This document shows positions 2,849 to 30,658 of a stretch of 64,000 nucleotides of DNA, one piece after another. This DNA comes from an uncultured Fibrobacteria bacterium (GTDB lineage Bacteria > Fibrobacterota > Fibrobacteria > UBA11236): the NCBI GenBank assembly GCA_963716395.1, contig OY970309.1, forward strand, positions 2,528,001-2,592,000, in the 5' to 3' direction. The position numbers and the translations under genes were made by a program. The notes under the pieces were generated by a model that saw only the letters and a program-made list of their open reading frames with translations, was not told where the DNA came from and did no database searches. Each line of letters opens with the position of its first letter. The stretch's first letter is position 1.

Positions 2849-3358
2849 ATGCCCGCACCGTTATTCACCGTCAACGCCTACCGCTACGACCCGTACCGCA
2901 CCTTCAAGTTCCAGATTCTCATCGACGGCAAACCCGTGGCCGGCCTGAAGAAAATGGGCGCCCTGAAAAAGAAAACCGAGGTGGTCAAATGGCGCACCGC
3001 CGGCGACCCTTCCAGCGAACGCCTATTGCCCGGCGGCACGAGTTGGGAACCGGTGGCGCTGGAACAGGGGCTGACCCATGATCCGGTGTTCGAGAACTGG
3101 GCCAACCTGGTCAACAATATCCAGGGCGATGCGGCCATGTCGCTCAAGAACTTCCGCAAAGATCTGGTCATCAATGTGCTCAACCTGCAAGGGCAGGTGG
3201 CCATTGCCTACAAGCTGTTCCGCGCCTGGGTGTCGGAATACCAGAGCCTGCCTGACTTCGACGCCGGCACGGTGAACGCGGTGGGCATTCAAACCATCAC
3301 CTTGCAACATGAGGGCTGGGAACGCGACGCCACCGTGCCCGAGCCGACCGAGACTTGA
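2849..3358 (+). CDS. Tail tube protein (T4 gp19-like; Afp1/5)
   Basis: RYDPYRTFKF, LEQGLTHD, FRKD..I, AWVSEYQ, TLQHEGWER; directly after the sheath. Confidence 0.93.
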   Translation: MPAPLFTVNAYRYDPYRTFKFQILIDGKPVAGLKKMGALKKKTEVVKWRTAGDPSSERLLPGGTSWEPVALEQGLTHDPVFENWANLVNNIQGDAAMSLKNFRKDLVINVLNLQGQVAIAYKLFRAWVSEYQSLPDFDAGTVNAVGIQTITLQHEGWERDATVPEPTET

Positions 3359-4188
3359 TCGACCGACGGCAGGCGAACATGCAGTTGCCCGGCGGATGGT
3401 GGGAAAACGGGCGGCGCCGGCGGGATTTTTCCTTCCGCGGCGTGAACGGCGCATTGGAACTGGCCCTGAACGAAGCCGTCGAAAGTGCCGCGTCCTGGCC
3501 CCAAGCCGTAACTTTGGCGTTAACCGCGGCTTTGGACCAATTGGGAGGCCGTTCCGCCGACCCCGCCGCCGTGGCCGGGCTGTGCGTGGCCGACCGCCAT
3601 TTTCTGCTGCGCCGATTACAAATCCACCTCGGCGAGGCGGAACTCTGGCGCCAGGGCGTATGCACGGCCTGCGGCGCCGCCTTTGACTTTCATGTGAGCT
3701 TGGAGGCGTTGCCGGTGGCCGAAGCCGGCGGGGAATTCCCTTTCGCAACCCTGCGCCGGGAAAACCGGGTGTTGCGCTTTCGCCTGCCTACCGGCGCGGA
3801 TCAAGAGGTCGTGGCCGGCCGCGACGATGAAGACGGCGCGCGTCGGGAATTGCTGCGCCGCTGTTGGGTCGCGGAGGGGGAAAGTGATCAGAACGCGGAT
3901 GCGGCCTTCGCGGCCGCGGCCTGGGAGCAAATCGAAGCGGCTTTGGAAGAGGTTTCTCCGGCCGTGATCACCGAAGCCGCGGCGGCCTGCCCCCAATGCG
4001 GGGCCGAAAACCGCGTGGAATTGGATCCCACCGACCTGCTGCGCCGCGGTACCGACCCGCTCTTGCGCGAAGTGCATCAATTGGCCTTGCATTACCACTG
4101 GAGCGAGGCCGACATCCTGGAATTACAGCGTCCGCGACGCCGGCGCTATCTCCACCTCATCGATCAGGCCCGGGGCTTTTCCGGCTAG
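3355..4188 (+). CDS. Tail/baseplate-hub assembly chaperone-like protein with two CxxC and a DUF6760-like C-terminus
   Basis: CTACG and CPQCG; FRLPTGAD; EVHQLALHYHWSEADILEL..RRRRY. Start may be ATG 3379. Confidence 0.7.
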   Translation: MIDRRQANMQLPGGWWENGRRRRDFSFRGVNGALELALNEAVESAASWPQAVTLALTAALDQLGGRSADPAAVAGLCVADRHFLLRRLQIHLGEAELWRQGVCTACGAAFDFHVSLEALPVAEAGGEFPFATLRRENRVLRFRLPTGADQEVVAGRDDEDGARRELLRRCWVAEGESDQNADAAFAAAAWEQIEAALEEVSPAVITEAAAACPQCGAENRVELDPTDLLRRGTDPLLREVHQLALHYHWSEADILELQRPRRRRYLHLIDQARGFSG

Positions 4189-4205: not shown

Positions 4206-5282
4206 ATGGGAATTTTATCCGCCGCCGTGCGCGAAGCCCGCCGTTCACAACCGCCCCCGGCGGGGCGGACGTATGCGGCGGCGTCCGCCGTAACTTCGGC
4301 ATTTACCTTGCCCGACGCGGCCGCCACGGCGGAAGCCTCCCTGTCGGTGACGCCAACGCAGAACTTTCAGAAGGAGGGGCGGTTTACGCCCCGAGAGGTG
4401 CCGTCGGACTCGCAGGCTTGGCAAGGCGCTGAGCCGCGGGTTCCCGGCCCATTAAAGGCAGAGTCCGGCCGCACGCCGGGTTCCTCTGCCGTGGATTCGG
4501 AAACGGATCGTCGTATGCATTCCGTGTGGCCTAGTACAAGGGAAGATGATAAGCGGTTGCAGCTTCCTGAAGTCTCAACTCCGTTGGATTCGTTCAATCG
4601 TCCGGTTTCGTCTGCGAGTATTCGCGGTGTGCCGTCTGTGATTGGCTCCGAGTCTGTGGACGTTCCTTCAGATCGAGATGCAAATTTGCCGATGCATGGA
4701 CCTGAGGAAAAGCTGTTGGGACGGCTTCCGGGCCCAGGCACCCCTTCTGAACCTTTCCCCGGCGCTGATTCGGCCGGGCTTTCGCGGCCTGCGGCCGACG
4801 CGTCGTTCCGGGTCGAGTCGCGGCCCGCGGAGGGCGCTGCGCGCAGCCCCACGGAAGCCGAAGCGCCGGCGCCCCGTTCCCCCGAGACCGCCGCCGGTTC
4901 CGTAACTCCGAAGATACGTACGGATTCCGCGGCCTCGCCGCCGCTTCCGCCAGCCGCGGCTTCCGTCTTGCCGGCGTCTCCCATAGCGGCGGTCCGGCCC
5001 GCGCCGGTGCCGAGCCCTTTGCGCCCGGCGGCCGGACCGGCCTTTCCGGCCGCACAAATCGAAGCGTGGGAGCATCGCCTGCAAGCTTTGGCCGATCGCC
5101 TCGAGGCCGTGGCCGGCCGCGAAATCGGCCGGCGGCTGCCGGGTTCCGCCGTCGCCTCGGGGCCGGTGGTGCGCATCGGCCAGGTCGACGTGTTCATCAC
5201 CGCGCCGGTCGTTCCGGCCAAGCCGGCGGCCGCGCAATCGGATCGCGCCTTCCTGAGCCGCAACTATTTGAGGCGGGTTTGA
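4206..5282 (+). CDS. Pro/Ala/Ser-rich disordered eCIS-associated protein
   Basis: Low complexity; C-terminal VVRIGQVDV and FLSRNYLRR; sits before the DUF4255 gene. Start chosen at ATG 4206. Confidence 0.65.
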   Translation: MGILSAAVREARRSQPPPAGRTYAAASAVTSAFTLPDAAATAEASLSVTPTQNFQKEGRFTPREVPSDSQAWQGAEPRVPGPLKAESGRTPGSSAVDSETDRRMHSVWPSTREDDKRLQLPEVSTPLDSFNRPVSSASIRGVPSVIGSESVDVPSDRDANLPMHGPEEKLLGRLPGPGTPSEPFPGADSAGLSRPAADASFRVESRPAEGAARSPTEAEAPAPRSPETAAGSVTPKIRTDSAASPPLPPAAASVLPASPIAAVRPAPVPSPLRPAAGPAFPAAQIEAWEHRLQALADRLEAVAGREIGRRLPGSAVASGPVVRIGQVDVFITAPVVPAKPAAAQSDRAFLSRNYLRRV

Positions 5283-5285
5283 ACC

Positions 5286-6305
5286 ATGGCCTTGGTGGCG
5301 TCGTCGTTGTCGCAGATCTGCAAGGCCATTTCGAGCTTTGTCAGCGCGGGCCTGAACACGGGCGGGGTCACCGTGTTCGTGACCTTGGGCAACCCCGGCG
5401 AATCCGTGGCGGGAGAAAGCGAAGGCCACCGCCTCAACCTGTTCTTCTTCCGCTTCGAAACCTATCAGTTCAACGCCGACGTGCTGCCGGGTGAGAATTT
5501 GCTGATGCGCATGCATTGCATCGTCACGCCCTTCGCCGTGCTCGAAGACAGCATCAGCGCGGGCGAAAACGATTTGCGGCTGGTGGGCGAAGTGCTGCGC
5601 ATCTTCCACGAACAGCCGGTGTTCCTGCTCAGCGCCGACTCCCAGCAATTCGAAGTGCAGGTGATTCTGCAAAACCTGGGATTGGATCAAATCAACCAGC
5701 TTTGGTCCACGCAAGGCGAAACCCTGTACCGCCCGTCGCTGTTATACGAAGTGTCGCTGGCGCCGGTGATCCCCAACAAAAAATCGGTGACCGCTCCCTT
5801 GGCCGGCGCCTTGGGCCTCGACGTCGAAGCCGATTTGGAGACGGTCGCGACGGGCAGCGTTGCGGCCGCGCCGCCGGACGTGGCGGCCGCGCGGGTCGAC
5901 ACCGCCCGCGAGGAGTGGGCGCCGCTCATTGCGTTCGTGTCGGGAGGCGCCTGCCTACAATCGGTGAGCTTCGCCCTGGGCAGCCCAGAGCTGTCCGCGT
6001 TCACGCCGGCGGTGTGGATTGCGGGGTTGTTGGGGGCCGCCGTGCAATTGCGCTGGGATGTCTGGGATTCGGTTTCGGGTTGGCAGACGCAGAGCAGCAC
6101 CACGCCCGCGACGGTTGCGACCGCGTCTCTGGATCCGGCGCAGGCCGCCTCGGCGACCACCGTTACCGCGGCGCTACCCTTTACCGAACATGCGGGCCAG
6201 GCCGTGCTCTATGCCGTGCGCAGCTATGCGCGCGGTTTTGACGGAACCAGCGTGACCGTGCGCAGCAACCCCTTACTGGTCAATCTGTACGCGGGGGGGC
6301 CATGA
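5286..6305 (+). CDS. DUF4255/Pvc16-like tail terminator (cap) with C-terminal extension
   Basis: LNLFFFRF, IVTPF, LVGEVLRIFHEQPV, INQLWS...YRPSLLYEVS pattern. Confidence 0.8.
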   Translation: MALVASSLSQICKAISSFVSAGLNTGGVTVFVTLGNPGESVAGESEGHRLNLFFFRFETYQFNADVLPGENLLMRMHCIVTPFAVLEDSISAGENDLRLVGEVLRIFHEQPVFLLSADSQQFEVQVILQNLGLDQINQLWSTQGETLYRPSLLYEVSLAPVIPNKKSVTAPLAGALGLDVEADLETVATGSVAAAPPDVAAARVDTAREEWAPLIAFVSGGACLQSVSFALGSPELSAFTPAVWIAGLLGAAVQLRWDVWDSVSGWQTQSSTTPATVATASLDPAQAASATTVTAALPFTEHAGQAVLYAVRSYARGFDGTSVTVRSNPLLVNLYAGGP

Positions 6306-7663
6306 TCGCGCCCACCCCGAAAGCTTCCCCCCTGGATAAAACGACCGCCGCGGATTTGCTCCCGGAATGGGAACGCCTGCAATTCCTGGGTTTTTGCCTG
6401 TCGCAAACCCGCCTGGGGCGGGAAATCCAGGCAACGGAACTGCGCCGCCTGCAGGAGTTGCAAAGCCAGGTCGACCAAGCGCGCGGCGACGGGGTGTGGA
6501 CGGCGGTACTGCCTGCGCCGTCGGCGGCTTTGTCGCCGCTCGAACTCGACGTGCTGGCTTGTGTGGTGGGCCCCGAAGTGGAGCCGCGTTTGGGTTGGAT
6601 GTATCAAACCCTGCAGCCGGGTATGGCGCACCCCTACCCGTCACGAGCCCTCATTCAGGAATTGCTGGCGCTGGATTCGCCCTGGGTGGAAAAACTGCAC
6701 GGGGCGCTGCTGCCGTCGGCGCCGCTGTGCGCCGGCCGATTGATCCGCGTCGAAGGCGAGCATCCCTACAAGCCCCTGACGCCCGAGCCGTGGATTGCGG
6801 CGCGCATTCTGGGCCGCGCCCAAAGCGATCCCCCGCCTCCCGGGGCCGTGGCCGTCAAGGTGCAGGCCACCTGGGAGACCTTGGTGTTACCCCCGTCGCG
6901 CAAGGCCATGCTGCGCGAATTCCTGTTATGGATCCGCCATCGCGAACGCGTGGTGAACCAATGGGGCGGCGGGGCGGTGGGCGGACCGGTGGCGCTGTTC
7001 TCGGGTCCGTCGGGCACGGGCAAAACTCTGGCGGCCTCGGTGATCGCGTCGGAATTGGGATGGCCCCTGTACCGCGTGGATCTCGGCCGGCTGGTGAGCA
7101 AATACATCGGCGAAACCGAGCAGAACCTGAACGCGCTTTTCGAAGCGGCGCATGGCCGGCCCATGGTCTTGCAATTCGACGAGGCCGACAGCCTATTCGC
7201 CAAACGCGGCGACGTGAAGGAAGCGCGCGATCGCTACGCCAACATGGAAGTCAGCCATTTGCTGGCCCGCATCGAGTCGCATGACGGCCCCTGCATTCTC
7301 ACCACCAATTTGCGCAAGCAATTGGATTCGGCGTTTTCGCGCCGCTTCCAGATGGTGCTGGAATTCCCGCGGCCCGACGCCCGTTCGCGCGCCCTCCTCT
7401 GGGCGCAATTGCTGCCGCCGCGCGCGCCGCGCGCTCCCGAAGTCGATCCGGAATTTTTAGGCTCGTCCGCCAGCCTGACCGGCGGTGGCATCCGCAATGC
7501 GGCCTTGCACGCCGCCTACATGGCCGCCGATCAAGACGGCCGCATCGAACTGCGTCATGTGGCGCTGGCGGTGTGGCGCGAAATCACCAAGGAAGGCCGC
7601 GAAGCTTCGTTTCAGGAGTTGGGGCCCTTGGCCGCGCATTTGCCGGAGAACCTGTATGATTGA
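6302..7663 (+). CDS. AAA+ ATPase (Afp15/Pvc15-like)
   Basis: Walker A GPSGTGKT, RVDLGRLVSKYIGETEQNL, Walker B FDEADSLF, DRYANMEVSHLL. Confidence 0.92.
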   Translation: MIAPTPKASPLDKTTAADLLPEWERLQFLGFCLSQTRLGREIQATELRRLQELQSQVDQARGDGVWTAVLPAPSAALSPLELDVLACVVGPEVEPRLGWMYQTLQPGMAHPYPSRALIQELLALDSPWVEKLHGALLPSAPLCAGRLIRVEGEHPYKPLTPEPWIAARILGRAQSDPPPPGAVAVKVQATWETLVLPPSRKAMLREFLLWIRHRERVVNQWGGGAVGGPVALFSGPSGTGKTLAASVIASELGWPLYRVDLGRLVSKYIGETEQNLNALFEAAHGRPMVLQFDEADSLFAKRGDVKEARDRYANMEVSHLLARIESHDGPCILTTNLRKQLDSAFSRRFQMVLEFPRPDARSRALLWAQLLPPRAPRAPEVDPEFLGSSASLTGGGIRNAALHAAYMAADQDGRIELRHVALAVWREITKEGREASFQELGPLAAHLPENLYD

Positions 7664-7889
7664 TATCACGCGTCTCCGCCTGCACTTGCCCGCGGGCTTC
7701 GAGCGCCGCGCCGCGCGCATCGCGCGCCTGGTGGGCGACGAACTGGCGCGCCTGCCGGTTGCTTCCGAAGTCCACGCGGATTCGCTGCATGTGCGCGGAC
7801 TCGAAATTTCCCCCGCGCTGTCGGACCGCCGCGCGGCGGCCCGCATCGCCTCCGCCATCCACCGCCAAGCCCAGGCACCGCAAGGTTAG
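7656..7889 (+). CDS. Small hypothetical eCIS protein (77 aa)
   Basis: MIDITRLRLHLPAG...ARLVGDELA...AARIASAI; overlaps the ATPase end; in frame with ORF 7485..7889. Confidence 0.6.
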   Translation: MIDITRLRLHLPAGFERRAARIARLVGDELARLPVASEVHADSLHVRGLEISPALSDRRAAARIASAIHRQAQAPQG

Positions 7890-7925
7890 ACGATGATAGT
7901 CCCGACGATGAAAGGAAAATGCTGA

Positions 7926-10865: not shown

Positions 10866-11252
10866 ATGGCGCAGCGGCTCACCGATCCCCCGTATCTGGA
10901 ATTTCCCCTGCGCATTCAAAGCGCGGGCGCGGTGCAGGCCGATCGCTCGCGCCATGTGCGCGATCAAATCGAACAGGTTTTGTTCACCTTACCCAATGAA
11001 CGCGTGTTCCGCCCCGACTTCGGCGCCGGGGTGCAGGCCTTGGTGTTCGAACCCAATGCATCGGCCATGTGGCTGGTGACGCGCAAACGGCTCATCTCCT
11101 CGCTGGCCCAGGCCTTGAGCGGCGACGTGGATCCGCGTTCCCTCGACGTCGACGTGACCGGCCAGGACGCCACCTTGAGCATCACCGTGTCGTACAGCCT
11201 CTCGACCCTGGGCGTGCGTGATTCCCAAACCTTCGCCCTGGGGGGTGGGTAA
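10866..11252 (+). CDS. GPW/gp25 sheath initiator (Afp9-like)
   Basis: IEQVLFTLPNERVFRPDFGAGV..LVFEPN. Confidence 0.9.
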   Translation: MAQRLTDPPYLEFPLRIQSAGAVQADRSRHVRDQIEQVLFTLPNERVFRPDFGAGVQALVFEPNASAMWLVTRKRLISSLAQALSGDVDPRSLDVDVTGQDATLSITVSYSLSTLGVRDSQTFALGGG

Positions 11253-17009: not shown

Positions 17010-20000
17010 ATGAAGACCCAAATCTCACGCAACAGCCTCCAGCCCGGCAAGCGTTACTCCGGCGTGTACCAGCAGCAGGGGCGGATGATCACCGACGCCG
17101 ATTGGAACGAGCTTACCGATCTCGACAAGCACCGGCTGTGGAACGCGTTGCGGGACGCCATCGGCAGCGGTGCGCCTACCGCCGGCGGCTTGGCCGTCAA
17201 CCCCGACAAAACCTTGCAGCCCGGCGTGCTCTATGCCGAAGGCGTGCCGGCCAAACTCGAAGGTGGCTCACCCGTGGCCTTCACCGCCCAGCCGGATTTT
17301 CCCGGGGCTCCGGCTTTGCCGGCCAACACGTTCACCTTGTATGCCGACGTCTGGGATCGCGCCGTGACTTCGCTGGAGGATTTGGTCTTGGTCGATCCGG
17401 GATTGCATGGGGCCGACACGTGCAGCCGCACGCAAACCATGCTGCAGGTGAAGTGGTGTCCCAACGCCGGCGATCCCGCGGACTTGAACAAAAATCCGCC
17501 CAAGGGCAACGGCCGGCTCGCGTTGCAATTGCGCACGACCTTTTCCGGCGGGGATCCCTGCGACCCCTGCGCGGCGCAGGTCAACGTCGACAACAAGGTG
17601 GGGAATTACCTGTTCCGCGTCGAAGTGCACGATCGCTACCAACAAGGCGGCCATGACTTTCTCGTGCTCAAATGGTCGCGCGACAACGGCTCCGAGCAAT
17701 ACCCGGTGGCGTCGGCGCCGCCCGATTTCAAACAGGGCGACTGGATTTACGAATTCTTCAACGACGTCACGGAGAAAAACCTGGGCGTGCATTTGGCCGC
17801 GGGATTTACCCCCTTGCGCGGCAAGCTGGTGGATGGCTACACCGTTCCCACCGCCCCCGCCGATCCCAAAACCTATGGGCGCCAATGGGACGGCTGTTGC
17901 ACCATTGACCTGACCGCCAAAACCTTGGCGGCCACCGCCACGCAGCCCGCCAAAGACAGAGGCGTGGCGTTGAGCACCACCTACGGGCTCGGAGCCCAAG
18001 GCCTGGTGACCTTGGGCGCTGCATTGCAAATCAATCTCGACTTGCTCGTCTTCAATTTGCAGTTGGATGGCTGCAACTTTGTGGCCGGCGACTATTGGCT
18101 GGCCACGGTGCGCGAAGCTACGCAAAGCGCGGGGGATTTCGTGCTGGGAACTTCGTTGACCTCCGGGGTCCCGCCCCTCGGCATTCACCACCATTATGTG
18201 TGGCTGGCCGACATCGACGGGTCGGGCGCGGTGATCGCGCCCACCGACGCGGAGAAGCGGCAATTCCATTTTCCGCCGCTGACCAATCTTCAGGCCTACG
18301 ACGTGGGGTTCACGAACAATTGCGCGACGCTGTTCACCGGCGCCCAAAACGTGCAGCAGGCGCTTGATGCGCTGTGCTTAATCGCTGCCGACGACATCGC
18401 CTATACCGTTCCAGGCTGCCCGGCGCCTTCGGTGGCGGCGTTGATGGCGGCCTCGGTGGCGGGGTGGCCCGATTTCGACGGTGACCACAAGGTTACGGTG
18501 AAAGACATGCTCGACGCTTTGCTGTGCAAACTGAGCGCTTCGTACCTGCCCTACAACGGCGCGATTCAGGGACCGCGCTGGACGGCGATTAAAAGCGAGG
18601 CCACGCCGTCGACCCCGCCGGGCACGGTGCAGCAAGCGCTCGACGATCTCGTGCAATACCTCGACTCCAAGGACATTCCGCATTATATGCAGAACTGCCC
18701 CGCGGGTTCGGAGCCCACGGTGCGTACGGCCTTGGGGTTGACCGGGGCGCAATACCCGGTCAGCGACATCTTGACCGCGCTGTTATGCCAGAAGCAGGCC
18801 GGGGGATCGAGCTGCTGCGTGTGCATCGGCCCGGGCGGCGACTTTCAGACCTTGCAAAACGCGCTCGACGCCTTCGCGGCCAATCCGGCGCCATGGACCG
18901 ATCTCATCCTATGCCTCAAGCCCGGCACCCACGTGCTGCTGGGTAACGTCGAAGTCACGGGCAAGCGTTCGGTGAAAATCACCGGATCGGGCACCTCGGC
19001 CAGCATCATCCAATTCCAGGGGGCGACTTTTCACATCCAGGCCCAGGAGATCGCTTTTGAAGATGTGGCCGTGGTCGCCACCCAGGCCGGTGGGCAACTG
19101 ATCCTGGAGGCGCCGTCGGTGTCGGCCGAAGATTCGCTGTTCCGGCGGGCGGGCAACAATCCCACCGCGCCCGCCTTGATCGCCGTGAACGCCGCGAGCA
19201 ATGGCGGCAGCGTGTTTTTCCAGAACAACACTTTGCAAAGCACCTGGCAGCGGGTGAGGCCCGGCATCAATCTCGGCAGTTATGCTCCGGTGTCCGTGGT
19301 GGGAGCCAAGACGGCGGCGGCATTCCAGAATTTGTTTGCCGATGAGACTTTGTCCGATCCCGACAAGTTCAACGCCGCCTTGATCGATCTTTCCAACCAA
19401 GTCGCGGCCCTGCCGCCAAGCACGCGCACCGCCTGGGTCCAGGCCGCGCCCAAAGCCTTGGCCGCGGCGCCGGCCAAGGCCAAAACCAAATCGGGGGCCA
19501 AATCGTCGCAGCACGCCTCGACGGCCAAGGCCAAAAAGGCTGCGCCGGCTCCGCTCAAAAGCGATGCGAAATCGGCGTCCTTCGCCATCAATGTCATCGG
19601 CAATATCACGTCGTTTCCGGTGATCCGGAACAACGGGGTCAACATCGTGGCCTCGACCCAGAATTTTTACACCCACCTCACCCAGGCCAAACTCAACCTG
19701 CCTTCGGTCCAGAGCGATTTGGCCGGCCTGGTGCTGGGTCTCATCGAATCGGGGTTCTGCCAGGCTTTGACTTTGAGTTCGATCCAAGTCGGCGGATCGC
19801 TGGCCTACAATACGGTGAATGGCGAGGTCGTGGTGCTCAACAACGGCGCGGCCGGAGCGGATATCGGCAAAAACGGCGTGCTGCAGCAGGTGGGGAGCCT
19901 CGTGGTGGCAAGCGTATCTCCCATCAGCGCCAACGGCGCCAAGTTGGATCTCGTGCACAATTCCATCGCGCGTTTTTCACAGCAGGTGCCGGCCGCCGCT

Positions 20001-20292: not shown

Positions 20293-22032
20293 TTGCGGAT
20301 ATTCCGGAGCAAAACCAGAATCCGTCGCGGCGATGGCGGCGTTTCGGTCCCGGAATCCGGGCCCATCCCGGCTCCGGGTCAGCGCGAAAAGATCCGCCAG
20401 GTTTTAAACGGCGGCCGCGTGCAGGCCAAGCTTGAAGTCAGTGCGCCGGAAGACGCGAGCGAACGCGAAGCCGATCAGGTGGCCGAGCGGGTGATGCGGG
20501 CTCCGGATTCCCCGGGCGATCCGTCGGCGGCGCCGCCTCGGATCCAAAGAAAGTGCGCCGACTGCGAAGAGGAAGAGAAAAAAGATCAGGGCGTGGTACA
20601 CACCAAGGCCGGTGGTGCCGGCGCACAGGCAACCGGCGCCCCGGCCGCCGTGAACGCCGTGCGCTCCGGCGGCCATCCGCTGCCCGGCGCCGAACGCGCA
20701 TTTTTCGAGGCCCGCTTCGGCCGGAGTTTCGGCCAAGTGCAGTTGCATACCGATGCGGGCGCGGCCGACGCTTCACGCGCACTGCACGCCCAGGCCTTCA
20801 CCTATAAGAATCATATCGCCTTTGCAACGGGCCGTTATGCCCCGGGCACGGAGTCGGGACGGAAATTGCTGGCCCATGAGCTGACCCATGTCGTGCAGCA
20901 GAATTCCGGCGACGCCACGCAATTGCGGCGCTTTCCCGGTCCCCCGGCCGCTTTGCCGGCGCCGGTCCACACGCCTGCGCCCGCCTCCACGCCGAAGGCG
21001 CCTTTGCCTTTACCGCCGCACAAAAATCCCGCGACCCAGGCCAAAACCAGCGCTCCGGCTTTTTCGGTTTCCAAATCCAATTATCTCGCCCTGCTGTCGG
21101 TGGCTTTGGATCAGATGCAAGGCTCGTTGGTGGCGGCCAACACCTTGTCCGGTTTCGTGGAACCCATGCTGCGCGCCATGGCGGCCCATGCCGAGTGGAA
21201 GGATGCCGCGGGCAAGGTCGGCGGCGGGGACTTCGTGGAATACAAATTGCCTTGGGATCCCAAACGAAAATTGAAGTTGAAGCTCATTCTCGACGATCAA
21301 GACAAACCGCCATTGGCGGGGCTGTTTCATGCCACGGGCTCCGACGCGGCCACCATCACGCTGTTTATTCGCGCCAATGACGACGCCGACACCATGAGCC
21401 AAACCGCCTACCACGAATCCTTACATTTGATCACCTGGCTGCGCGGCAATTCTTCGGCGAAAAAACCGTTGGGCGATTCCATGGGGCTGAACTCTTCGCA
21501 AAAAGAGGTCTTGGACAACTTGAATATTCAGTCGCAAGCGCCCAAGTTGAAAGTCATCCGCCGCCGGGTGGAGCGCATCGCCGAAACCGTCAACGCTACG
21601 CGCGCTTCCGACAAGCAAATTCCCGCTGCCAAAATCGATTCCATGGCCGAATGGTTATTGCAGGAATACCTGGTGCGCATTGAATCGGAAGTGTATCGGC
21701 TTTTCGGGATTCAGGAACAAGTGAACAAGTTGCCTCCAGGCCAAGGCATGGTCTTCAAAGCCACCGATCCCGGTTCGTTTTTCAAGGCATCGGATGTCGA
21801 GATTTATCTCTTTGATCAAAGCGGTGTCTTCAAGCCCGAAGACAAAGCCGCCCTCACCGAACTGGATCTTCAGGACATCGCTGCCATCGCCAAAATTTTC
21901 GATGATGGCGTGGAGTGGCTGGTGAAAAGACGTTTCAGTTCCTTCGCCTTTCGCACGGAACACCGCCCCCAGGTGGAAATCTTGCAAATGCCTAAACGCA
22001 GCTTCGTGGATAAAATCCAACCCGCGGATTAA
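20293..22032 (+). CDS. DUF4157 (eCIS core) protein with C-terminal second HExxH domain; candidate effector
   Basis: QAKLEVS..D..EREAD..A; FFEARFG..F..V.LHT; AFT...IAF; LLAHELTHVVQQ (20875-20889); HESLH (21412-21426). TTG start after GGAGG. Confidence 0.85.
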   Translation: MRIFRSKTRIRRGDGGVSVPESGPIPAPGQREKIRQVLNGGRVQAKLEVSAPEDASEREADQVAERVMRAPDSPGDPSAAPPRIQRKCADCEEEEKKDQGVVHTKAGGAGAQATGAPAAVNAVRSGGHPLPGAERAFFEARFGRSFGQVQLHTDAGAADASRALHAQAFTYKNHIAFATGRYAPGTESGRKLLAHELTHVVQQNSGDATQLRRFPGPPAALPAPVHTPAPASTPKAPLPLPPHKNPATQAKTSAPAFSVSKSNYLALLSVALDQMQGSLVAANTLSGFVEPMLRAMAAHAEWKDAAGKVGGGDFVEYKLPWDPKRKLKLKLILDDQDKPPLAGLFHATGSDAATITLFIRANDDADTMSQTAYHESLHLITWLRGNSSAKKPLGDSMGLNSSQKEVLDNLNIQSQAPKLKVIRRRVERIAETVNATRASDKQIPAAKIDSMAEWLLQEYLVRIESEVYRLFGIQEQVNKLPPGQGMVFKATDPGSFFKASDVEIYLFDQSGVFKPEDKAALTELDLQDIAAIAKIFDDGVEWLVKRRFSSFAFRTEHRPQVEILQMPKRSFVDKIQPAD

Positions 22033-22045
22033 GCCGGCGCGCTTT

Positions 22046-25000
22046 ATGCAAACCTTCGCTCCGGCCAAAACCAAGTCGGCCGCCGGCCCTAGGCACCGCT
22101 CCGCGCCCGCCACCGTGGGCCCGCCCGTGCATCGCGCGCCTCCGCCTTGGGCGGACGCCGCGCTGACTTCGCTGGGCGTCCTAGCCAAACTCAAGGTGAG
22201 CCAACGCGATGAACCGGCCGAACAAGAAGCCAATCAGATTGCCGACCGCATCGTGGCCATGTCCGACTCTTCGGCGGCTACCGAAGCGCCGCCCAATGCG
22301 GCGGCGCCTCCGCCTTCGAGGCCGCCGCCGCCGGGGACGCCGGACGCTTCGTCCGGATCGTCGGCTTCTTCTTCTGCTGCGACTGCTGCGGGTTCGACTC
22401 CGCCGCTGAAACCCGTGAATCGGTATTTGCTGGCGGCCGGGTTGCACCGTTCCGAATGCGAGTCTTGCGAAGAAGAATCCGAACCCATGGTGCACACCTC
22501 GCGCGACCGCGATGCGCCGGACGAAACGCTGGCACGGCTCGGCGCGCGGGTTTTCGCCTTGCGGCAACGCGGTGCGCCGCTGCCGTCGGAGGTGCGCACC
22601 TTTATGGAGCCGCGTTTCGGCCGCGATTTTTCCGGCGTGCGCATTCATCTGGGCACCGAACCCGAGGCGCTCTCGCAATCTCTCCATGCGCGCGCCTTCA
22701 CCGTGGGCGAGCATATCGCTTTCGGACCCGGGCAATACCGTCCCGACACCGAAACGGGCCGCAAGCTGATCGCGCATGAGTTGACTCACGTGGTGCAGCA
22801 ACGCGGCGGGCAGCCCGCGGCGAAACAAGTCCCGGCCGTGCGTCCGGAAAAACCCAAGGTGCAGCGCGGCGTCATTTCCTGGCTCGGCGATCGGGCCTCG
22901 GATGTCGGCGGCGCCGTCTCCGACGCGGCCCACGATGTCGGTCACGCCGTTTCCAGCGCGGCCTCGGCCGTGGGAGGCGCGCTCGCCGATTTGGCTTGGG
23001 CCGCGGTGCGTGAATTGGCGCCGAGTCTGGAACCCATTTTGCGTGAAGGGCCGTTCAACTGGTTGAAGCGCCAGGTCGGCAACGCCTTCCACTCCCTCAT
23101 CAGTGCCGTGACAAGCCTGTTACCTCCGGGCGTGGTGCAGGTGTTGAATACCGTATTCGGCGGCCTGATGACGCGCGCCTCGCAAATCGTCGGCGCTTTG
23201 GCTTCGGGCGATTGCGGCCCGTTGTTCCAGGCCCTGCGCGATTTGAAAGACTTCATCAGCCAAGTGGCGGGCGAAGTCTGGGATAAGCTGGTCGACTTTC
23301 TCCATCCCATCGGCGATTTCTTTGCGCGTTTGTGGAACGGTTATGGCGCTCCGGCCGTGCAATGGTTGCGCGAATTCGCCGGCGAGGTGTGGCAGGTCAT
23401 TTCGGATTTGGGCCATGACATCTGGGAATGGATTCAACCTCTTCGCAACGGCGTTCGGAGAATTTGGAATTGGGTGAAAGAAAAGCTTTTCGGCCCCGAT
23501 GACGATTCTTCCGGAGAGAGTTCGGGCGGTATCATCCATTGGATCACCGAAAAAGCCGGCGAGGCCTGGGATTGGGTCAAAGAGCAAACCCGGCCGGTCT
23601 GGCAGCCGATTTCGCGCGCCCTCGCCACCGTGCGTTCGTTGATTCCGCCGGCCTTCATCCGCCGCCTGGGCGAATCATTCCAGCATCTGGGCGCGCAATT
23701 GAACCAGGCCGGCTCCAATCTCGGCGACGATGGCGACGACGTAGCGCAAAACCGCGCGGCCCTGGCTTCGGTGTTGCCTTCAGTGCAGCAGGTTTTGGCG
23801 GCCGCGCGCGGGGCCATCGTGTCGGCCAAGACCTGGGTGTTGGAAACTATGGGCTCGATGGCCTCGCAATTCAGCAACTTCCTCTCCGAGCTGCGCAACT
23901 CCAGCATATTCAGCCCGGTGGCCGGGGCGCTTGCGTGGCTTGAAGGCGTGGGCAATGATCTCAACTCCTGGGCGCAAGACAAGGTGGGCGGGCTGTTCGA
24001 TTTCGTCATCCGCGCCTTCGATTATGTCTCGCCTTTCATCGAAAAGATGGTGGAACTGGTGCGCCAGGTGATTGCGGTGATGGCCGACATTCTGCGTTTG
24101 CCCACGCTGATTCTCGGCAGCATCTGGAATCTCATTCCGGCCTGCATCCGCAACCCCATCCGCGACTTTTTCATCAACCAGATTTTGCGCCGCATTCCGG
24201 TGTTCAGCTTCCTGCTCGATCTGCCGGATCTCTGGGCCCGGGTCGAGGCCGTGGCTTTGCGCATTCTGCGCCAGGTATTTGTTGACGGCAATTTGGCCGG
24301 CGCCGCCTGGACTTTTTTCCGCAACATGCTGCGCCTCATCGGCATCCCACCCGAATTGGTGGTGTCGATTCTGGCCAAGGCGGCTTCGGCGCTGGGCGAC
24401 ATCCTCACCAATCCCATTCGTTTCCTCACCACCTTGCTGTCGGGCGTGGTGCACGGCTTCGGCCAGTTCTTCGATCATATCGGCACGCATCTTTTGAACG
24501 GCATCACGGGCTGGCTGTTCGGCGCCATGCAAGGTGCGGGCATCACGCCGCCGCATGAATTCAGCCTGCGATCCATACTCGGCATCGTGCTGCAAATCCT
24601 CGACATTTCCGTGGATCGGATTTTCGCGCGCCTGGCGCGGCGCGTGAGCCCCGAAATCGTGGCGCGCCTGCGCCAGGCCGTGAATATCGCCACGGGCGTA
24701 TGGGAATGGGTGGCCGTGCTCATTAACGAAGGCCCAGGCGGCCTCTGGCGCCTGGTGCAGGATCGGCTCAGCAACCTGTGGAGCACCGTGATCAGCACGG
24801 CCATCAGTTGGATTACGCAACGGGTGATCGCCGCGGGCATCCGCTGGCTGGCGGGCTTTCTCGACATCTCGGGCATCATGCCGGTGATCAATACCTTGAT
24901 CGCCGTTTATCGCGCCATCCAAAGCGCCGTGGCCTATATCCGGCAAATCCTCGAAGTGGTGAACACGGCCCTCGACGGCATCGGTGCCATGGCGCGCGGC

Positions 25001-26401
25001 GATCCGGGGCCGGCCGCGAATTTCGTCGAGCGCGCCCTGGCGGGCATCGTGCCCGTGGCCATCGGCTTCGTGGCCAACCAGGTGGGCCTGGGCGACATCA
25101 GCGCGCGCATCCGCGAAGTGATCGAAGGCGTGCGCGCCATGGTCGATCAAGCCATCGACTGGCTCATCGACCGGGCTTTGCGGGCCGGCCGCGCCTTTCT
25201 CGACATGTTGCGGCGCGGGGTGACCGCGGTGCGCGGCGGCGTGGCGGCCCTGCGCCAGTGGTGGCGCAGCCGGCGGACGTTTCGCACCGACAGCGGGGAA
25301 GAGCACTCCCTGTATTTCACCGGGAGCGGAGGTTCGGCGCGCCTGATGATTGCCAGCGATCCGCAGCCGTATCAAACCTTCATCGCCGGAGTCGATGTCC
25401 CCGCCTCCAAACGCGCGGACAAACAAGAGGCCCTGCGCATTGCGGGAGAGTTGGATACGGCCGTTCGCGCGGCCGCGGCTCCGGCGGCGGGAAGCGGCGC
25501 GGCTGCAACCGGCGGAGGTGCCGTCGCCGTAGACCCTTCGACGCAGATCAATCAGCTGTTGGCCGATTTGGCATCGGTCACCGCGCGCTTCATACCCGCC
25601 AACCGAAACCGATCCAGCGTGCCGGTTTTCGGCCCAAGGGTCGGCGGATTCGGAAGTTCGGTGCGCGAATCCGTGTTGGGCCCCGATCGCCTGGAAACCG
25701 GAAGCACGCCTTCGGTGGAGGATAATCCGCATTGGCAGGCCTTACGGGCCAGGCGGCAGGGAGGCCGTTCCTACTTCGTGCGCGGGCATTTGCTCAACCA
25801 CCATTTGGGTGGGCCGGGTAACACCTGGGATAACTTGACGCCGATGTTCCAGGATGACAACGGGGCCTTTGAACGGGGATTCGAAGCGCCCGTCAAGGAT
25901 GCGGTGCGCGGCGGCCGGGCGGTCAATTTTATCGTCACGGCCAGTTACGGCCGTTCGCCCAATCCGAATATGGCAACGCTCCGCCGGGGAGGCGTCCGCG
26001 ATCAGGCGGTGGCGCGGATCATGGAGGCGGAACAATTCGTTCCGACCGGGGTGACGGCTTCCGCGAAGTTTACGGACCAGCCCTCGCAATCGCCGGTGAG
26101 CCCCGATCCGAAACCGTTCCCATTCACTTTTCCGACCACGCAAGACGCTTACGATCTGGAAGGTGCGCCCCGGGAAAACCGCTGGCTTTCCGATATGAAC
26201 GCCGAGCAAATCCAAAGCGACTTCGGGGTGACGGCTACGCAGGCGAGTGCGATTGCCGCGGCCCTGCATTCCAGCCCCGCGCCCCGAACCTGGGAGGCGT
26301 TGCGCGACGCCTACCACGCCGTGGACGGGCGGCTGGCGCTGGGAGCGTTGGATGGTATTCAAAACTCCGAGCGCTTCAACGTGCGGTTGTTCAGCCGATA
26401 A
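22046..26401 (+). CDS. DUF4157 protein with long helical region, C-terminal non-specific (His-Me) endonuclease and HhH-like tail; candidate effector
   Basis: MEPRFGRDFSGVRIH, LIAHELTHVVQQ (22775-22789); Trp-periodic helical middle; RGHLLNHHLGGPG...NLTP (from 25781). Confidence 0.85.
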   Translation: MQTFAPAKTKSAAGPRHRSAPATVGPPVHRAPPPWADAALTSLGVLAKLKVSQRDEPAEQEANQIADRIVAMSDSSAATEAPPNAAAPPPSRPPPPGTPDASSGSSASSSAATAAGSTPPLKPVNRYLLAAGLHRSECESCEEESEPMVHTSRDRDAPDETLARLGARVFALRQRGAPLPSEVRTFMEPRFGRDFSGVRIHLGTEPEALSQSLHARAFTVGEHIAFGPGQYRPDTETGRKLIAHELTHVVQQRGGQPAAKQVPAVRPEKPKVQRGVISWLGDRASDVGGAVSDAAHDVGHAVSSAASAVGGALADLAWAAVRELAPSLEPILREGPFNWLKRQVGNAFHSLISAVTSLLPPGVVQVLNTVFGGLMTRASQIVGALASGDCGPLFQALRDLKDFISQVAGEVWDKLVDFLHPIGDFFARLWNGYGAPAVQWLREFAGEVWQVISDLGHDIWEWIQPLRNGVRRIWNWVKEKLFGPDDDSSGESSGGIIHWITEKAGEAWDWVKEQTRPVWQPISRALATVRSLIPPAFIRRLGESFQHLGAQLNQAGSNLGDDGDDVAQNRAALASVLPSVQQVLAAARGAIVSAKTWVLETMGSMASQFSNFLSELRNSSIFSPVAGALAWLEGVGNDLNSWAQDKVGGLFDFVIRAFDYVSPFIEKMVELVRQVIAVMADILRLPTLILGSIWNLIPACIRNPIRDFFINQILRRIPVFSFLLDLPDLWARVEAVALRILRQVFVDGNLAGAAWTFFRNMLRLIGIPPELVVSILAKAASALGDILTNPIRFLTTLLSGVVHGFGQFFDHIGTHLLNGITGWLFGAMQGAGITPPHEFSLRSILGIVLQILDISVDRIFARLARRVSPEIVARLRQAVNIATGVWEWVAVLINEGPGGLWRLVQDRLSNLWSTVISTAISWITQRVIAAGIRWLAGFLDISGIMPVINTLIAVYRAIQSAVAYIRQILEVVNTALDGIGAMARGDPGPAANFVERALAGIVPVAIGFVANQVGLGDISARIREVIEGVRAMVDQAIDWLIDRALRAGRAFLDMLRRGVTAVRGGVAALRQWWRSRRTFRTDSGEEHSLYFTGSGGSARLMIASDPQPYQTFIAGVDVPASKRADKQEALRIAGELDTAVRAAAAPAAGSGAAATGGGAVAVDPSTQINQLLADLASVTARFIPANRNRSSVPVFGPRVGGFGSSVRESVLGPDRLETGSTPSVEDNPHWQALRARRQGGRSYFVRGHLLNHHLGGPGNTWDNLTPMFQDDNGAFERGFEAPVKDAVRGGRAVNFIVTASYGRSPNPNMATLRRGGVRDQAVARIMEAEQFVPTGVTASAKFTDQPSQSPVSPDPKPFPFTFPTTQDAYDLEGAPRENRWLSDMNAEQIQSDFGVTATQASAIAAALHSSPAPRTWEALRDAYHAVDGRLALGALDGIQNSERFNVRLFSR

Positions 26402-26446: not shown

Positions 26447-26881
26447 ATGAATCCATCCGAGCATCCAAGTGAAGCAGCGACTTCGCCGGCCGGCCCGGGA
26501 GGTGGAATGCCGGGCAATGCGGAGTCGGCAAAAAAACCCACGACCCGCCACGGCTCCGATCCCCTCGTCTTTGCCGCCTTGCAATGGCCGGCTCTCGTCG
26601 GACTGCTCGCACCTGCGCATTCCCTCTGGGCCGCCGCCGCCAAAGTGCTGCTCGCCCTATGGTTGTTGGCTTTGCAAAGCGCCGCCTTTCGCGGCCGCTA
26701 TCAGCGTCTGCCGGCCTTCGGATTTTCGGTGCTGATGAACAACGCGCTCTTCGTCGGGTTCTGGCTGGCGCACCGGCCTATGGCGCGCTGGATTTGGGGA
26801 GGTCTGCTTTTCTTCTTCATGCTGAGCAGTATCGGCTTGGCGCGCAAAATTCCGTGCGCGGAAAATTCTTCGGACCTTTGA
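26447..26881 (+). CDS. Small hypothetical membrane protein (about 4 hydrophobic segments)
   Basis: Hydrophobic stretches after a polar N-terminus; no recognisable motif. Confidence 0.5.
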   Translation: MNPSEHPSEAATSPAGPGGGMPGNAESAKKPTTRHGSDPLVFAALQWPALVGLLAPAHSLWAAAAKVLLALWLLALQSAAFRGRYQRLPAFGFSVLMNNALFVGFWLAHRPMARWIWGGLLFFFMLSSIGLARKIPCAENSSDL

Positions 26882-28295: not shown

Positions 28296-28489
28296 TGTCG
28301 GTCTTTTACCTGCTCATTCCCGTTTCGGTGGCCGTGGCGGCCGGTTTTGTGCTGATATGTGTCATGGCCATCCGCTCCGGCCAATTCGACGATCTCGAAA
28401 GCCCGCGCTGGCGCGTGCTGTTCGACGAGAAAAAAACGGAGGCCCCGAATCCCTCGAATCTTAACCCCGCGGAGAATAAAGCGTCATGA
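28295..28489 (+). CDS. ccoS: cbb3 oxidase maturation protein CcoS
   Basis: LLIPVS...F..AIRSGQFDDLESP..R.L. Confidence 0.9.
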   Translation: MSVFYLLIPVSVAVAAGFVLICVMAIRSGQFDDLESPRWRVLFDEKKTEAPNPSNLNPAENKAS

Positions 28490-30658
28490 CCAAGGTTCGC
28501 TACGACGACAAGATTGTCAAAATGTTCCTGCAAGCAACCCTGTTCTGGGGCGCGGTGGGTATGCTGGCCGGATTGACATTGGCCCTGCAATTGGCCGACT
28601 GGCATTTCAACTTCATGAAGTACGTCAATTTCGGCCGCCTGCGCCCGCTGCACACCAACGCCGTGATCTTCGCTTTCGCCGGCAATGCGATTTTCTGCGG
28701 CGTGTACTACTCCATCCAACGTCTGCTCAAGGTTCGCCTCTACAGCGACCTCTTGTCGCGCATTCATTTCTGGGGTTGGCAACTCATCATCTTGCTGGGA
28801 GGGGTCGGCTTTTTGTTCGGCATCACAACCGGGGAGGAATATGCCGAACTGGAATGGCCGCTCGACCTCGCCTTGGCCGTGATTTGGCTCATCTTCGCCT
28901 ATAACTTTTTCGCCACTTTGCTGCGCCGGCGCGAAAGGCACCTGTACGTGGCCATTTGGTTTTACATCGCCACCCTCATCACCATCACGCTCCTGCATGT
29001 GGTGCGCTCGCTGGAAATTCCGGTATCGCTGTTCAAAAGCTATCCCGTCTACGCGGGCGTGCAAGACGCCCTGGTGCAATGGTGGTACGGCCACAACGCG
29101 GTGGGCTTTTTCCTGACCACGCCTTTTCTGGGCATCATGTATTACTTCGTGCCCAAGGCCGCGGGGCGGCCGGTGTATTCGTACCGGCTTTCCATCATGC
29201 ATTTCTGGGCCCTGGTTTTTCTCTACATCTGGGCCGGTCCGCATCACCTGCTTTACACCGCCTTACCCGACTGGGCGCAAGACACGGGCATGGTGTTTTC
29301 GGTGATGCTGCTGGCGCCTTCGTGGGGCGGCATGATCAATGGCCTGCTGACGTTGCGCGGCGCCTGGGATAAGTTGCGCACCGAGCCCGTGCTCAAGTTC
29401 TTCGCGGCCTCCATCACCTTTTACGGCATGTCGACTTTCGAAGGTCCGCTCATGGCCATCAAGATCGGTGAATGCGCTCTCGCATTACACCGACTGGACC
29501 ATCGCGCATGTGCATGATGGCGCCCTGGGCTGGGTCGGCCTGATGATCTTCGGTATGATTTATTGGCTGGTGCCGCGGCTCTGGCGCACCAAGCTCTACA
29601 GCCAAGCCATGGCCAACGCACATTTCTGGTTGGCCCTGGTGGGTATTCTCTTTTACGTCGTGTCGCATGTGGGTCTCCGGCATCACCCAGGGGTTGATGT
29701 GGAAAGAATTCACCCCCGACGGCCTGCTGGCCTATCCCAGTTTCGTCGACATCGTGACCAAACTCAATCCGTTTTATTGGGGGCGGGCTTTCGGCGGCTT
29801 CCTCTACCTCTGCGGCTTGGTGGTGATGATCGTCAACGTGTGGCGCACGGCGAAGGCCGGCAGCTTTGCCGACGAAGAAGTCACCGTGCCCGATGCGGTT
29901 CCAGCCGCGACATGCTACCCAGCCACTGGCATGCGGTGCTGGAACGTAAGCCTTTGCTGCTGGGAATGATCGCTCTGTTGGTGGTGCTCATCGGCGGGAT
30001 CGTCGAGATGGTGCCGACTTTCCTCATTCGCAGCAACATCCCCACTATCGCCTCGGTGAAACCTTATACGCCGCTCGAACTCGAGGGGCGCGACATCTAT
30101 TTGCGCGAAGGCTGCTACAACTGCCATTCGCAGATGATCCGGCCCTTCCGCGACGAAGTCGAACGCTACGGCGAATATTCCAAACCCGGCGAATTCGTAT
30201 ATGACCATCCTTTTCAATGGGGATCCAAGCGCAACGGGCCCGACCTGCAGCGCGTGGGCGGCAAGTACAGCGATCTCTGGCATATCCGCCATCTGGATGA
30301 TCCGCGCTCGACTTCGCCCGGATCCATCATGCCGAGCTTCCATTTTCTGCTGGGCGAGAGACTGGACCTCAGCCTGCTGCCGCGCAAAATCAAGGTGATG
30401 CGCGAACTGGGCGTGCCCTATTCCGATTCGGTGGAGCACAATGCCATCGCGCTGGCCGAGGCCCAGGCCCAGGGTATCGCCGACGATTTGCAGCCCGAAG
30501 GGTTCAAGAATATGGCCGACAAAGAAGTCGTGGCGCTGATCGCCTACTTGCAGCGGCTCGGCACCGATATCAAAAGTCAAAATGTCGCCGCGGCCCCCGC
30601 TCCAGCGGAAGGGGTGGCCGCTTCCCCATCAAACCAAAAAGCAGGAGATTCACCATGA
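28486..30658 (+). pseudogene. ccoN: Fused cbb3 oxidase subunits I/II (CcoNO), interrupted by three apparent 1-nt indels (error or pseudogene)
   Basis: FGRLRPLHTN, QWWYGHNAVGF, WAGPHH, HVH.GALGW in successive frames; Cco[23 protein letters not shown]. Frame switches near 29464, 29666 and ~29900. Confidence 0.85.

Follow-up and report, generated by a model that had tools for sequence, protein, structure and literature searches.

We examined a window of 64,000 nucleotides from an uncultured Fibrobacteria bacterium (GTDB lineage Bacteria; Fibrobacterota; Fibrobacteria; UBA11236; assembly GCA_963716395.1, contig OY970309.1, positions 2,528,001 to 2,592,000 of the forward strand). The window carries the gene cluster of an extracellular contractile injection system (eCIS), and its open reading frame (ORF) 22046-26401 on the + strand encodes a protein of 1451 amino acids (aa), which is the subject of this analysis. 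This protein is probably a cargo toxin of the tapemeasure-related type that is carried in the eCIS lumen, in which a long helical module would aid packing of a nuclease or its passage across a membrane (probability about 0.6).

Domain organization of the 1451-aa protein

ORF 22046-26401 is the last gene of the cluster, located downstream of the P2_I gene, the DUF6519 gene, and a second eCIS_core gene, and is its largest ORF (1451 aa vs 1088 aa for the next largest ORF on the + strand). An identical protein is present in protein records. Four parts were recognized in the protein:

22046..22570, + strand: N-terminal Ala/Pro/Ser-rich region, residues 1-175 (33 Ala, 24 Pro, and 20 Ser of 175)
22577..22810, + strand: DUF4157/eCIS_core domain with the HExxH motif HELTH, residues 178-255 (PF13699, E 2.8e-32, 111 bits, cut-off 22)
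22874..25270, + strand: all-helical, amphipathic, Trp-rich, tape-measure-like module, residues ~277-1075 (PHROG matches, AlphaFold2, hydrophobic moment)
25643..26125, + strand: EndA/NucA-like His-Me finger nuclease domain, residues ~1200-1360, limits estimated (Foldseek, AlphaFold2, sub-cut-off PF13930)

Residues 1-175, which would be disordered judging from their composition, are a probable cargo-loading sequence by analogy with AlgoCIS Cgo1 and Cgo2, for which a disordered N-terminus is described as required for loading (preprint 10.64898/2026.05.27.728243). At the other end, the nuclease domain matched PF13930 (Endonuclea_NS_2) with an E value of 7.3e-4 and 20.2 bits, under the cut-off of 27, and the same family label is precomputed for 35 of 119 listed homologues. 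AlphaFold2 modeled residues 1100-1451 with a predicted local distance difference test score (pLDDT) of 86, and a Foldseek search with this model returned EndA of S. pneumoniae (3owv, E 7.5e-5) as the best match, followed by NucA, EsaD, Sda1, and the Serratia nuclease. A VRGH motif is present, and G1247-H1248-L1249, N1263, N1272, and E1280 are invariant in 36/36 sequences. As judged from sequence and model, the C-terminal domain is an EndA-related nuclease with a catalytic His and a metal-binding Asn, and activity is predicted. Short strands are predicted by AlphaFold2 at residues 1077-1104, directly after the helical module.

The helical, Trp-rich module

A previous reading of the DNA, made from the sequence only, had described 22860-25270 (residues 272-1075 of the ORF) as an amphipathic region of ~800 aa with Trp pairs 11 residues apart. 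The three motifs that it quoted are present at residues 449, 508, and 901. The module holds 31 of the 36 Trp residues of the protein (3.86% vs 0.77% in the rest). Five Trp-Trp pairs at a lag of 11 residues were observed vs 1.15 expected (p 0.0045 in 2000 shuffles, for this single lag and uncorrected for 40 lags), and pairs at a lag of 34 were also enriched (6 pairs, p 0.0005). Nearest-neighbor Trp gaps of 9-12 residues accounted for 10 of 30 gaps (p 0.0005, 20000 shuffles). The periodicity analysis that had been proposed gave 11.25 residues as the strongest Fourier period of Trp within 2-40 residues, with the power of the 10.5-11.5 band matched by 3 of 1000 permutations (p 0.003). This periodicity is local; it comes from two ladders and does not extend across all ~800 residues. 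The ladders and a hydrophobic core are located as follows:

23279..23602, + strand: Trp ladder 1, residues 412-519 (W412, 430, 440, 449, 460, 462, 474, 476, 499, 508, 510, 519)
24701..24847, + strand: Trp ladder 2, residues 886-934 (W886, 888, 901, 912, 922, 934; gaps 13, 11, 10, 12)
24317..25174, + strand: hydrophobic core of the module, residues 758-1043 (windows 936-954 and 997-1015; also in a Streptomyces clavuligerus plasmid protein)

Ladder 1 lies on predicted helices 390-462, 464-482, 496-514, and 516-532, with W430/440/449/460 on one predicted helix of 73 residues, and W901/912/922/934 of ladder 2 share one predicted helix of 42 residues. Across 67 aligned sequences, 14 of the 31 module Trp residues were invariant and 23 were at least 90% conserved. 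AlphaFold2, run with the 67-row alignment, predicted 28 helices of up to 73 residues, covering 697 of 855 residues (82%); the core at residues 758-1043 was the best-modeled part of the module (pLDDT 80-90). The mean helical hydrophobic moment was 0.373 vs 0.223 +/- 0.013 in 300 shuffles (z 11.9). Three 19-residue windows reached a Kyte-Doolittle value of at least 1.6 (675-693, 936-954, and 997-1015; values 1.65-1.87) and are membrane candidates by hydropathy alone. Together, the Trp statistics, conservation, helicity, and hydrophobic moment indicate that the earlier description of the region was accurate and that the pattern is more than chance.

In the same 67 sequences, which share 47-71% identity, the module measured 765-807 aa (median 794), and its flanks varied (N-termini 85-488 aa, C-termini 309-518 aa). 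By alignment, the module is a discrete, length-conserved unit.

Similarity to phage tape measures

Ten of the 13 PHROG families matched by the protein are annotated "tail length tape measure"; these ten match residues ~294-1093, with a best E value of 1.3e-18. Among the 66 aligned homologues, 26 were tested, and all 26 matched at least three tape-measure PHROGs at E <= 1e-5. The PHROG matches of these homologues were confined to tail or tape-measure families and one endolysin family. As natural negative controls, four other DUF4157 cargo proteins (889-1100 aa) were searched, and none matched any PHROG at E <= 0.01. A Streptomyces protein that contains the core only, used as a further negative control, gave no tape-measure PHROG match. 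The term "tape-measure-like" in the sequence-only reading was thus borne out: we consider the likeness real at the level of profiles, and common descent of the module and phage tape measures is probable on this sequence evidence.

A module without tape-measure descent would be a membrane translocation or pore-forming domain of polymorphic toxins, and its PHROG matches would reflect composition, that is, amphipathic helices, hydrophobic stretches, and aromatic spacing. We regard this explanation as unlikely. It would account for the presence of the core in the S. clavuligerus protein described below, which has neither DUF4157, nor a CIS gene within 20 kb, nor a tape-measure PHROG match, and is followed by a DUF6301 gene. 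It would also agree with the searches of Pfam tape-measure families and phage records, both negative, and with the shifting register of the PHROG alignments between homologues. However, HMMER E values fell as low as 1e-18 to 1e-23, almost only for tape-measure families, and the other long, helical-rich DUF4157 cargo proteins gave no such match. The 11-residue Trp ladder is, moreover, a known tape-measure trait according to the published description (PMC5099701), and Tme, a tapemeasure-related effector of S. davawensis, was independently interpreted in this way by another group in its published account (PMC11126660).

Distribution of the module within and beyond eCIS loci

Relatives of the module numbered 253 at E <= 0.001. 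The 119 that were listed share 47-70% identity, 115 of them carry PF13699, and those with names are mostly from Burkholderiales and other Pseudomonadota, Desulfobulbus, and Verrucomicrobiales. In 7/7 genomic loci examined, eCIS genes adjoin the homologue. A scan of genome contigs with the single protein as query returned one locus, L006.

Matches were also found in 35 plasmid records, of which 20 are from Streptomyces; the Streptomyces plasmid proteins have only residues 758-1107 in common with the protein studied here. In the S. clavuligerus plasmid protein (1322 aa, L066:18096-22559), the core, residues 758-1043, was aligned by tblastn with 34.5% identity over 287 aa (E 5e-35). A DUF6301 gene comes after the gene for this protein, and its C-terminal part looks like a candidate toxin of the restriction-endonuclease type. 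Its N-terminus is disordered, and a further part is helical and charged. A homologue on a Sinorhizobium plasmid (L067:19297-23363) spans residues 219-1105 and matches tape-measure PHROGs. The portion that precedes its long ORF is read in another frame (ORF 19297-19863), and the gene may be frameshifted. Since the core occurs outside CIS neighborhoods, it behaves as a portable toxin-delivery part, which speaks for a role on the target side, at the membrane, and less for a purely structural role.

Candidate length determinants of the particle

The sequence-only reading had also proposed that, with no Afp14 present, the protein may be a ruler-toxin fusion. The first half of this proposal held for the Afp14-type family. 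When the complete genome (3.75 Mb) that contains the window was searched with PF19268 (CIS_TMP), no match at E <= 1 was obtained, and the same search was positive in three control genomes (G287, G165, and G296). A genome without PF19268 fits lineage II eCIS, for which afp14 is described as generally absent, with no ruler named in the accessible text (PMC6899500). However, a conserved 358-aa gene close to the tube gene may be the ruler. The two genes that follow the tube gene are:

3355..4188, + strand: 277-aa Zn-ribbon protein with two CxxC pairs, after the tube gene (phrog_150 'baseplate hub', E 5.4e-4; PF12322, T4_baseplate, E 6.7e-3)
4206..5282, + strand: 358-aa low-complexity protein, after the tube and Zn-ribbon genes, conserved in 3/3 same-lineage loci

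In three loci of the same lineage, G253 (tube 77.5% identical), G181, and G178, counterparts of the 358-aa protein follow the tube and Zn-ribbon genes and have 355, 327, and 336 aa, respectively. Members of this family lie at L064:8177-9244 (- strand), L060:4952-5935, and L062:5045-6055. Only the ends of the proteins are alike, with MG[YI]xS N-terminally and IGxIxV..P...SRxYLRR C-terminally. The 358-aa protein had no family match in Pfam, PHROG, or NCBIfam and no match by sequence in the PDB, and a search of 207 other genomes of the class returned only two chance-level matches. A profile of the family found four proteins in the protein collection, where the 358-aa form is on record. Of 295 other genomes in the phylum sample, 7 have a homologue of the Zn-ribbon protein, and each homologue whose surroundings were examined lies in an eCIS locus. 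In more distant loci (e.g. G241, G239), the same place is held by a tail assembly chaperone (phrog_508, E 1e-9 to 1e-10) and then a low-complexity protein of 387-569 aa. The Zn-ribbon protein is possibly an assembly factor at the position where other loci have the chaperone.

Two sets of loci bear on the role of the module. First, PF19268 adjoins the homologue in L006/G296 (584 aa, E 1.4e-82), G287 (576 aa, E 1.6e-115), and G165 (E 5.6e-96), and the L006 homologue (P0012) is among the 67 sequences with the standard module length. The module therefore cannot be the only ruler in these three related loci. Second, G253, G181, and G178 show the gene order of the window with DUF4157 cargo that lacks the module; the completeness of G253 is 95%, and the search for the module scored only two candidates from each genome. 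At the slots where a ruler gene would be expected, the window has 3355-4188 and 4206-5282, and L006 and G287 have CIS_TMP; the 1451-aa gene lies outside both the chaperone-to-baseplate slot and the Afp14 slot before the ATPase. By position, the 358-aa protein is a better ruler candidate than the module, which probably does not set particle length.

As a ruler-toxin fusion of an eCIS without Afp14, the protein would extend its module along the lumen, set the length of the tube (0.15 nm per residue, ~120 nm), and be ejected together with its nuclease. Phage tape measures can carry enzymatic domains. This explanation would also account for the tape-measure PHROG matches, a module length kept within ~3%, and the genome without PF19268. 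Further in its favor are the 11-residue Trp periodicity, as described for some phage tape measures (PMC5099701), the general lack of afp14 and of a named ruler in lineage II eCIS (PMC6899500, in the accessible text), and the argument of the Tme authors for a tape-measure-like position and binding to baseplate proteins, as given in their account (PMC11126660). However, a module of the same length stands beside a dedicated CIS_TMP in three loci, and the three same-lineage loci have the slot gene without the module. The gene is also placed at the 3' cargo end of the cluster, after a fibre-like gene, and not between the tube and baseplate genes, and its N-terminal region is common to the neighboring cargo. 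In a related case, particles were described as intact after deletion of Sle1/2 (PMC13277306). The AlphaFold2 helices fold back as hairpins and do not form one rod; this is weak evidence because it comes from a monomer prediction. We therefore do not favor the fusion and consider it quite improbable. Similarly small is the chance that, in lineage II eCIS, a cargo toxin derived from a tape measure doubles as a length determinant or cooperates with one, with its Trp stripe docked along the lumen.

Proposed role of the module in cargo delivery

The favored reading, a lumen cargo toxin of the tapemeasure-related type, can be written as a series of steps. The protein would consist, in order, of an Ala/Pro/Ser-rich loading region, the DUF4157/eCIS_core domain, the ~800-residue helical module, and an EndA/NucA-like non-specific nuclease. 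The module, with its two ladders of ~11-residue Trp spacing and its hydrophobic core, would be descended from phage tape measures or closely imitate them. The AAA+ ATPase would thread the protein into the tube lumen beside its 579-aa DUF4157 neighbor, the module would hold the long chain as an extended helix compatible with the lumen, and contraction would then expel the protein. After expulsion, the module would associate with the target membrane or insert into it, so that the nuclease could reach DNA. A membrane translocation domain delivering the nuclease, which the sequence-only reading had offered as its other option, is plausible by analogy with what is hypothesized for Tme in its published account (PMC11126660). 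Direct observations on which this reading builds are the domains of the protein, its homology signals and conservation, and the gene contexts.

A number of points weigh against this reading. Loading, ejection, and membrane action are all inferred by analogy with described systems. The genome lacks CIS_TMP and the slot protein lacks a family match, and the conserved ~794-aa length of the module is also what a ruler would show. The AlphaFold2 model of the module is of only moderate confidence (mean pLDDT 70.6; predicted template modeling score, pTM, 0.48). No Pfam tape-measure family matched the protein at E <= 0.01, a tblastn search of 50,697 phage records with residues 540-1100 gave no match at E <= 1e-3, and a pattern scan of viral contigs matched 367 stretches, among which no relative was confirmed. 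The place of the PHROG alignments within the module shifts from homologue to homologue, a pattern that repeats or similar composition would explain as well as strict homology would. When the module model was used for fold searches, BFVD gave no significant match (best E 0.02), the best E value in the PDB was 0.77, and VIA-align against 48,161 chains gave Z <= 9.1 for generic helical hairpins at model residues 322-436 only. Finally, neither the S. clavuligerus protein, which is also without DUF4157, nor the Sinorhizobium homologue has a CIS or eCIS gene, respectively, within 20 kb.

The BFVD, PDB, and VIA-align results leave the module without a fold assignment; the weak BFVD rows include many models of tape-measure or minor-tail proteins. 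Searches of the PDB by sequence (phmmer with the protein, hmmsearch with the alignment) returned nothing relevant, and look-alikes in the ESM Atlas were uninformative (scores 0.76-0.78).

It is also conceivable, with low probability, that the module is a mimic that merely stows the 1451-residue toxin in the lumen beside the true ruler, its aromatic stripe turned to the tube wall or a chaperone, and has no role at the target membrane. Coexistence of the module with CIS_TMP and the invariant Trp stripe on one helix face agree with this, as do the link of tape-measure aromatic periodicity to chaperone binding (described in PMC5099701) and the scaling of AlgoCIS cargo load with lumen volume (described in preprint 10.64898/2026.05.27.728243). 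However, the conserved hydrophobic core, which also occurs in a toxin without a CIS neighborhood, points to a function on the target side, and other DUF4157 cargo proteins of ~1000 aa manage without the module.

The eCIS gene cluster and neighboring genes

Scans of the window with Pfam, PHROG, and NCBIfam, the last of which gave nothing useful, placed the eCIS cluster on the + strand at 1220-26401. By Pfam, the order is sheath, tube, Pvc16_N, AAA+ ATPase, CIS_tube, LysM/tail-X, spike OB, baseplate (including baseplate J), P2_I, DUF6519, and two eCIS_core (DUF4157) genes. The two eCIS_core genes form the 3' end of the cluster, and cbb3 oxidase genes come next. Two further genes of the cluster relate to cargo:

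6302..7663, + strand: AAA+ ATPase, Afp15/Alg15-like (PF00004, E 9.5e-26)
20293..22032, + strand: shorter of the two DUF4157 cargo genes (579 aa), immediately upstream of the 1451-aa gene (PF13699, E 4e-29)

The ATPase is a probable cargo loader, as judged from Alg15. The 579-aa protein has an N-terminal motif and DUF4157 in common with the 1451-aa protein (37% identity, E 6e-30, from residue 45). A second HExxH-like motif, HESLH, was observed in its C-terminal part and recalls the metalloprotease motifs of AlgoCIS Cgo1, which are reported in DUF4157 and in the C-terminal domain (PMC8894135, in the accessible text). ORF 26447-26881, downstream of the 1451-aa gene, had no family match and no counterpart after the L006 homologue; thus, no immunity gene was identified.

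Some smaller features of the window were also noted. A 78-aa ORF (7660-7896) follows the ATPase gene, and G253, G181, and G178 each have a counterpart in the corresponding position (82-86 aa). Between the spike and baseplate genes lies a 128-aa ORF (10866-11252), with no PAAR-sized ORF beside it. In the oxidase genes, cbb3 subunit I (COX1, 28486-30658) seems to be split: ORF 28486-29517 covers profile positions 1-331 of 436, and the overlapping ORF 29468-30658 has COX1 profile positions 333-397 joined in frame to a FixO (CcoO) domain. A frameshift, a sequencing error, or a natural junction of ccoN and ccoO might each explain the split.

Significance of the findings

With these results, the tape-measure-related effector class, so far described from actinobacterial CIS, comes to include a large family under tight conservation, for which 253 relatives were counted at E <= 0.001. 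The anatomy of the class also becomes sharper: it now includes a length-conserved module of ~794 residues, a pair of invariant Trp ladders, and a hydrophobic core that is found outside CIS neighborhoods as well. From the comparison of loci, it can be argued that modules of this kind serve as cargo and not as rulers, and the unnamed gene for a protein of 327-358 aa becomes a ruler candidate for eCIS without Afp14. In engineered injection systems, the module could be considered as a carrier for large payloads. If a ruler-toxin fusion were true of lineage II eCIS, a single protein would set both particle length and toxin payload.

Comparison with known systems

The layout of the cargo genes resembles that of AlgoCIS, in the lumen of which two DUF4157 cargo proteins, Cgo1 and Cgo2, are described (PMC8894135). 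As in that account, a short and a long DUF4157 gene are adjacent (579/1451 aa here vs 498/1228 aa), the pair has common N-terminal regions, and the cluster includes an AAA+ ATPase. The features of Cgo-type cargo are present here: an N-terminus predicted to be disordered from its composition, DUF4157, a variable C-terminus, paired genes, and the ATPase. In AlgoCIS, the N-terminal loading sequence is described as needing the ATPase, and the ruler is a separate protein, Alg14, at 0.229 nm per residue (preprint 10.64898/2026.05.27.728243). Unlike AlgoCIS, which by its published description has an Afp14-type ruler (Alg14, 526 aa), the genome studied here has no PF19268 match. For Cgo2, the accessible text reports neither the tape-measure likeness nor the nuclease seen in the 1451-aa protein.

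Some phage tape measures, e.g. the TP901-1 TMP, are described with Trp/Phe repeats of 11 or 18 residues and hydrophobic regions (PMC5099701). Compared with that description, the module is likewise almost wholly helical, with 11-residue aromatic spacing, internal hydrophobic segments, and PHROG similarity. Unlike phage tape measure genes, the gene does not lie between the chaperone and baseplate genes and encodes DUF4157 in front of the module and a nuclease behind it; the Trp ladders cover only ~160 of ~800 residues, and no Pfam tape-measure match was found.

In a phage-tail-like particle of S. lividans, the tape-measure-related Sle1 is described with a DUF4157 partner, Sle2; the effector is reported to reach lipid membranes, and double deletion gave particles without apparent structural defect (PMC13277306). 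By this description, the systems have in common a tape-measure-related helical effector tied to DUF4157 and a modular, exchangeable C-terminal functional domain, whereas the DUF4157 part of the Sle pair is a separate protein and its functional domain is not a nuclease. Linkers of >1000 residues between DUF4157 and toxin domains were noted by Geller et al. 2021 (PMC8213781, in the accessible text).

The closest likeness is to Tme (BN159_7576) of the S. davawensis CIS (Nagakubo et al. 2024, PMC11126660), and it is drawn from the published description and from domain content. In that description, Tme combines DUF4157, a region of remote tape-measure homology in which transmembrane helices are predicted, and a nuclease resembling EndA. 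Tme was co-purified with the spike and the tube initiator, and its authors propose membrane insertion after ejection. The only mutant reported in the accessible text has a stop before the nuclease and still formed particles of ~200 nm. The 1451-aa protein resembles Tme, so described, in its N-terminal DUF4157, in its long region remotely homologous to phage tape measures, with putative hydrophobic helices, in its C-terminal EndA-like nuclease with an active site of the RGH/H-N-N type, and in being the largest ORF of its CIS cluster. It differs in size and order (1451 aa with a confidently helical module vs 2247 aa with ~70% disorder) and in its nuclease, whose Pfam match, below the cut-off, is to PF13930 and not to the EndA family even though its best fold match is EndA. 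The tme gene is just upstream of the baseplate genes, whereas the gene studied here is at the 3' end, after a fibre-like gene and a second DUF4157 gene. By its architecture, the 1451-aa protein belongs to the tapemeasure-related effector class; because this class is already in print, the protein represents a further member, encoded at a different gene position.

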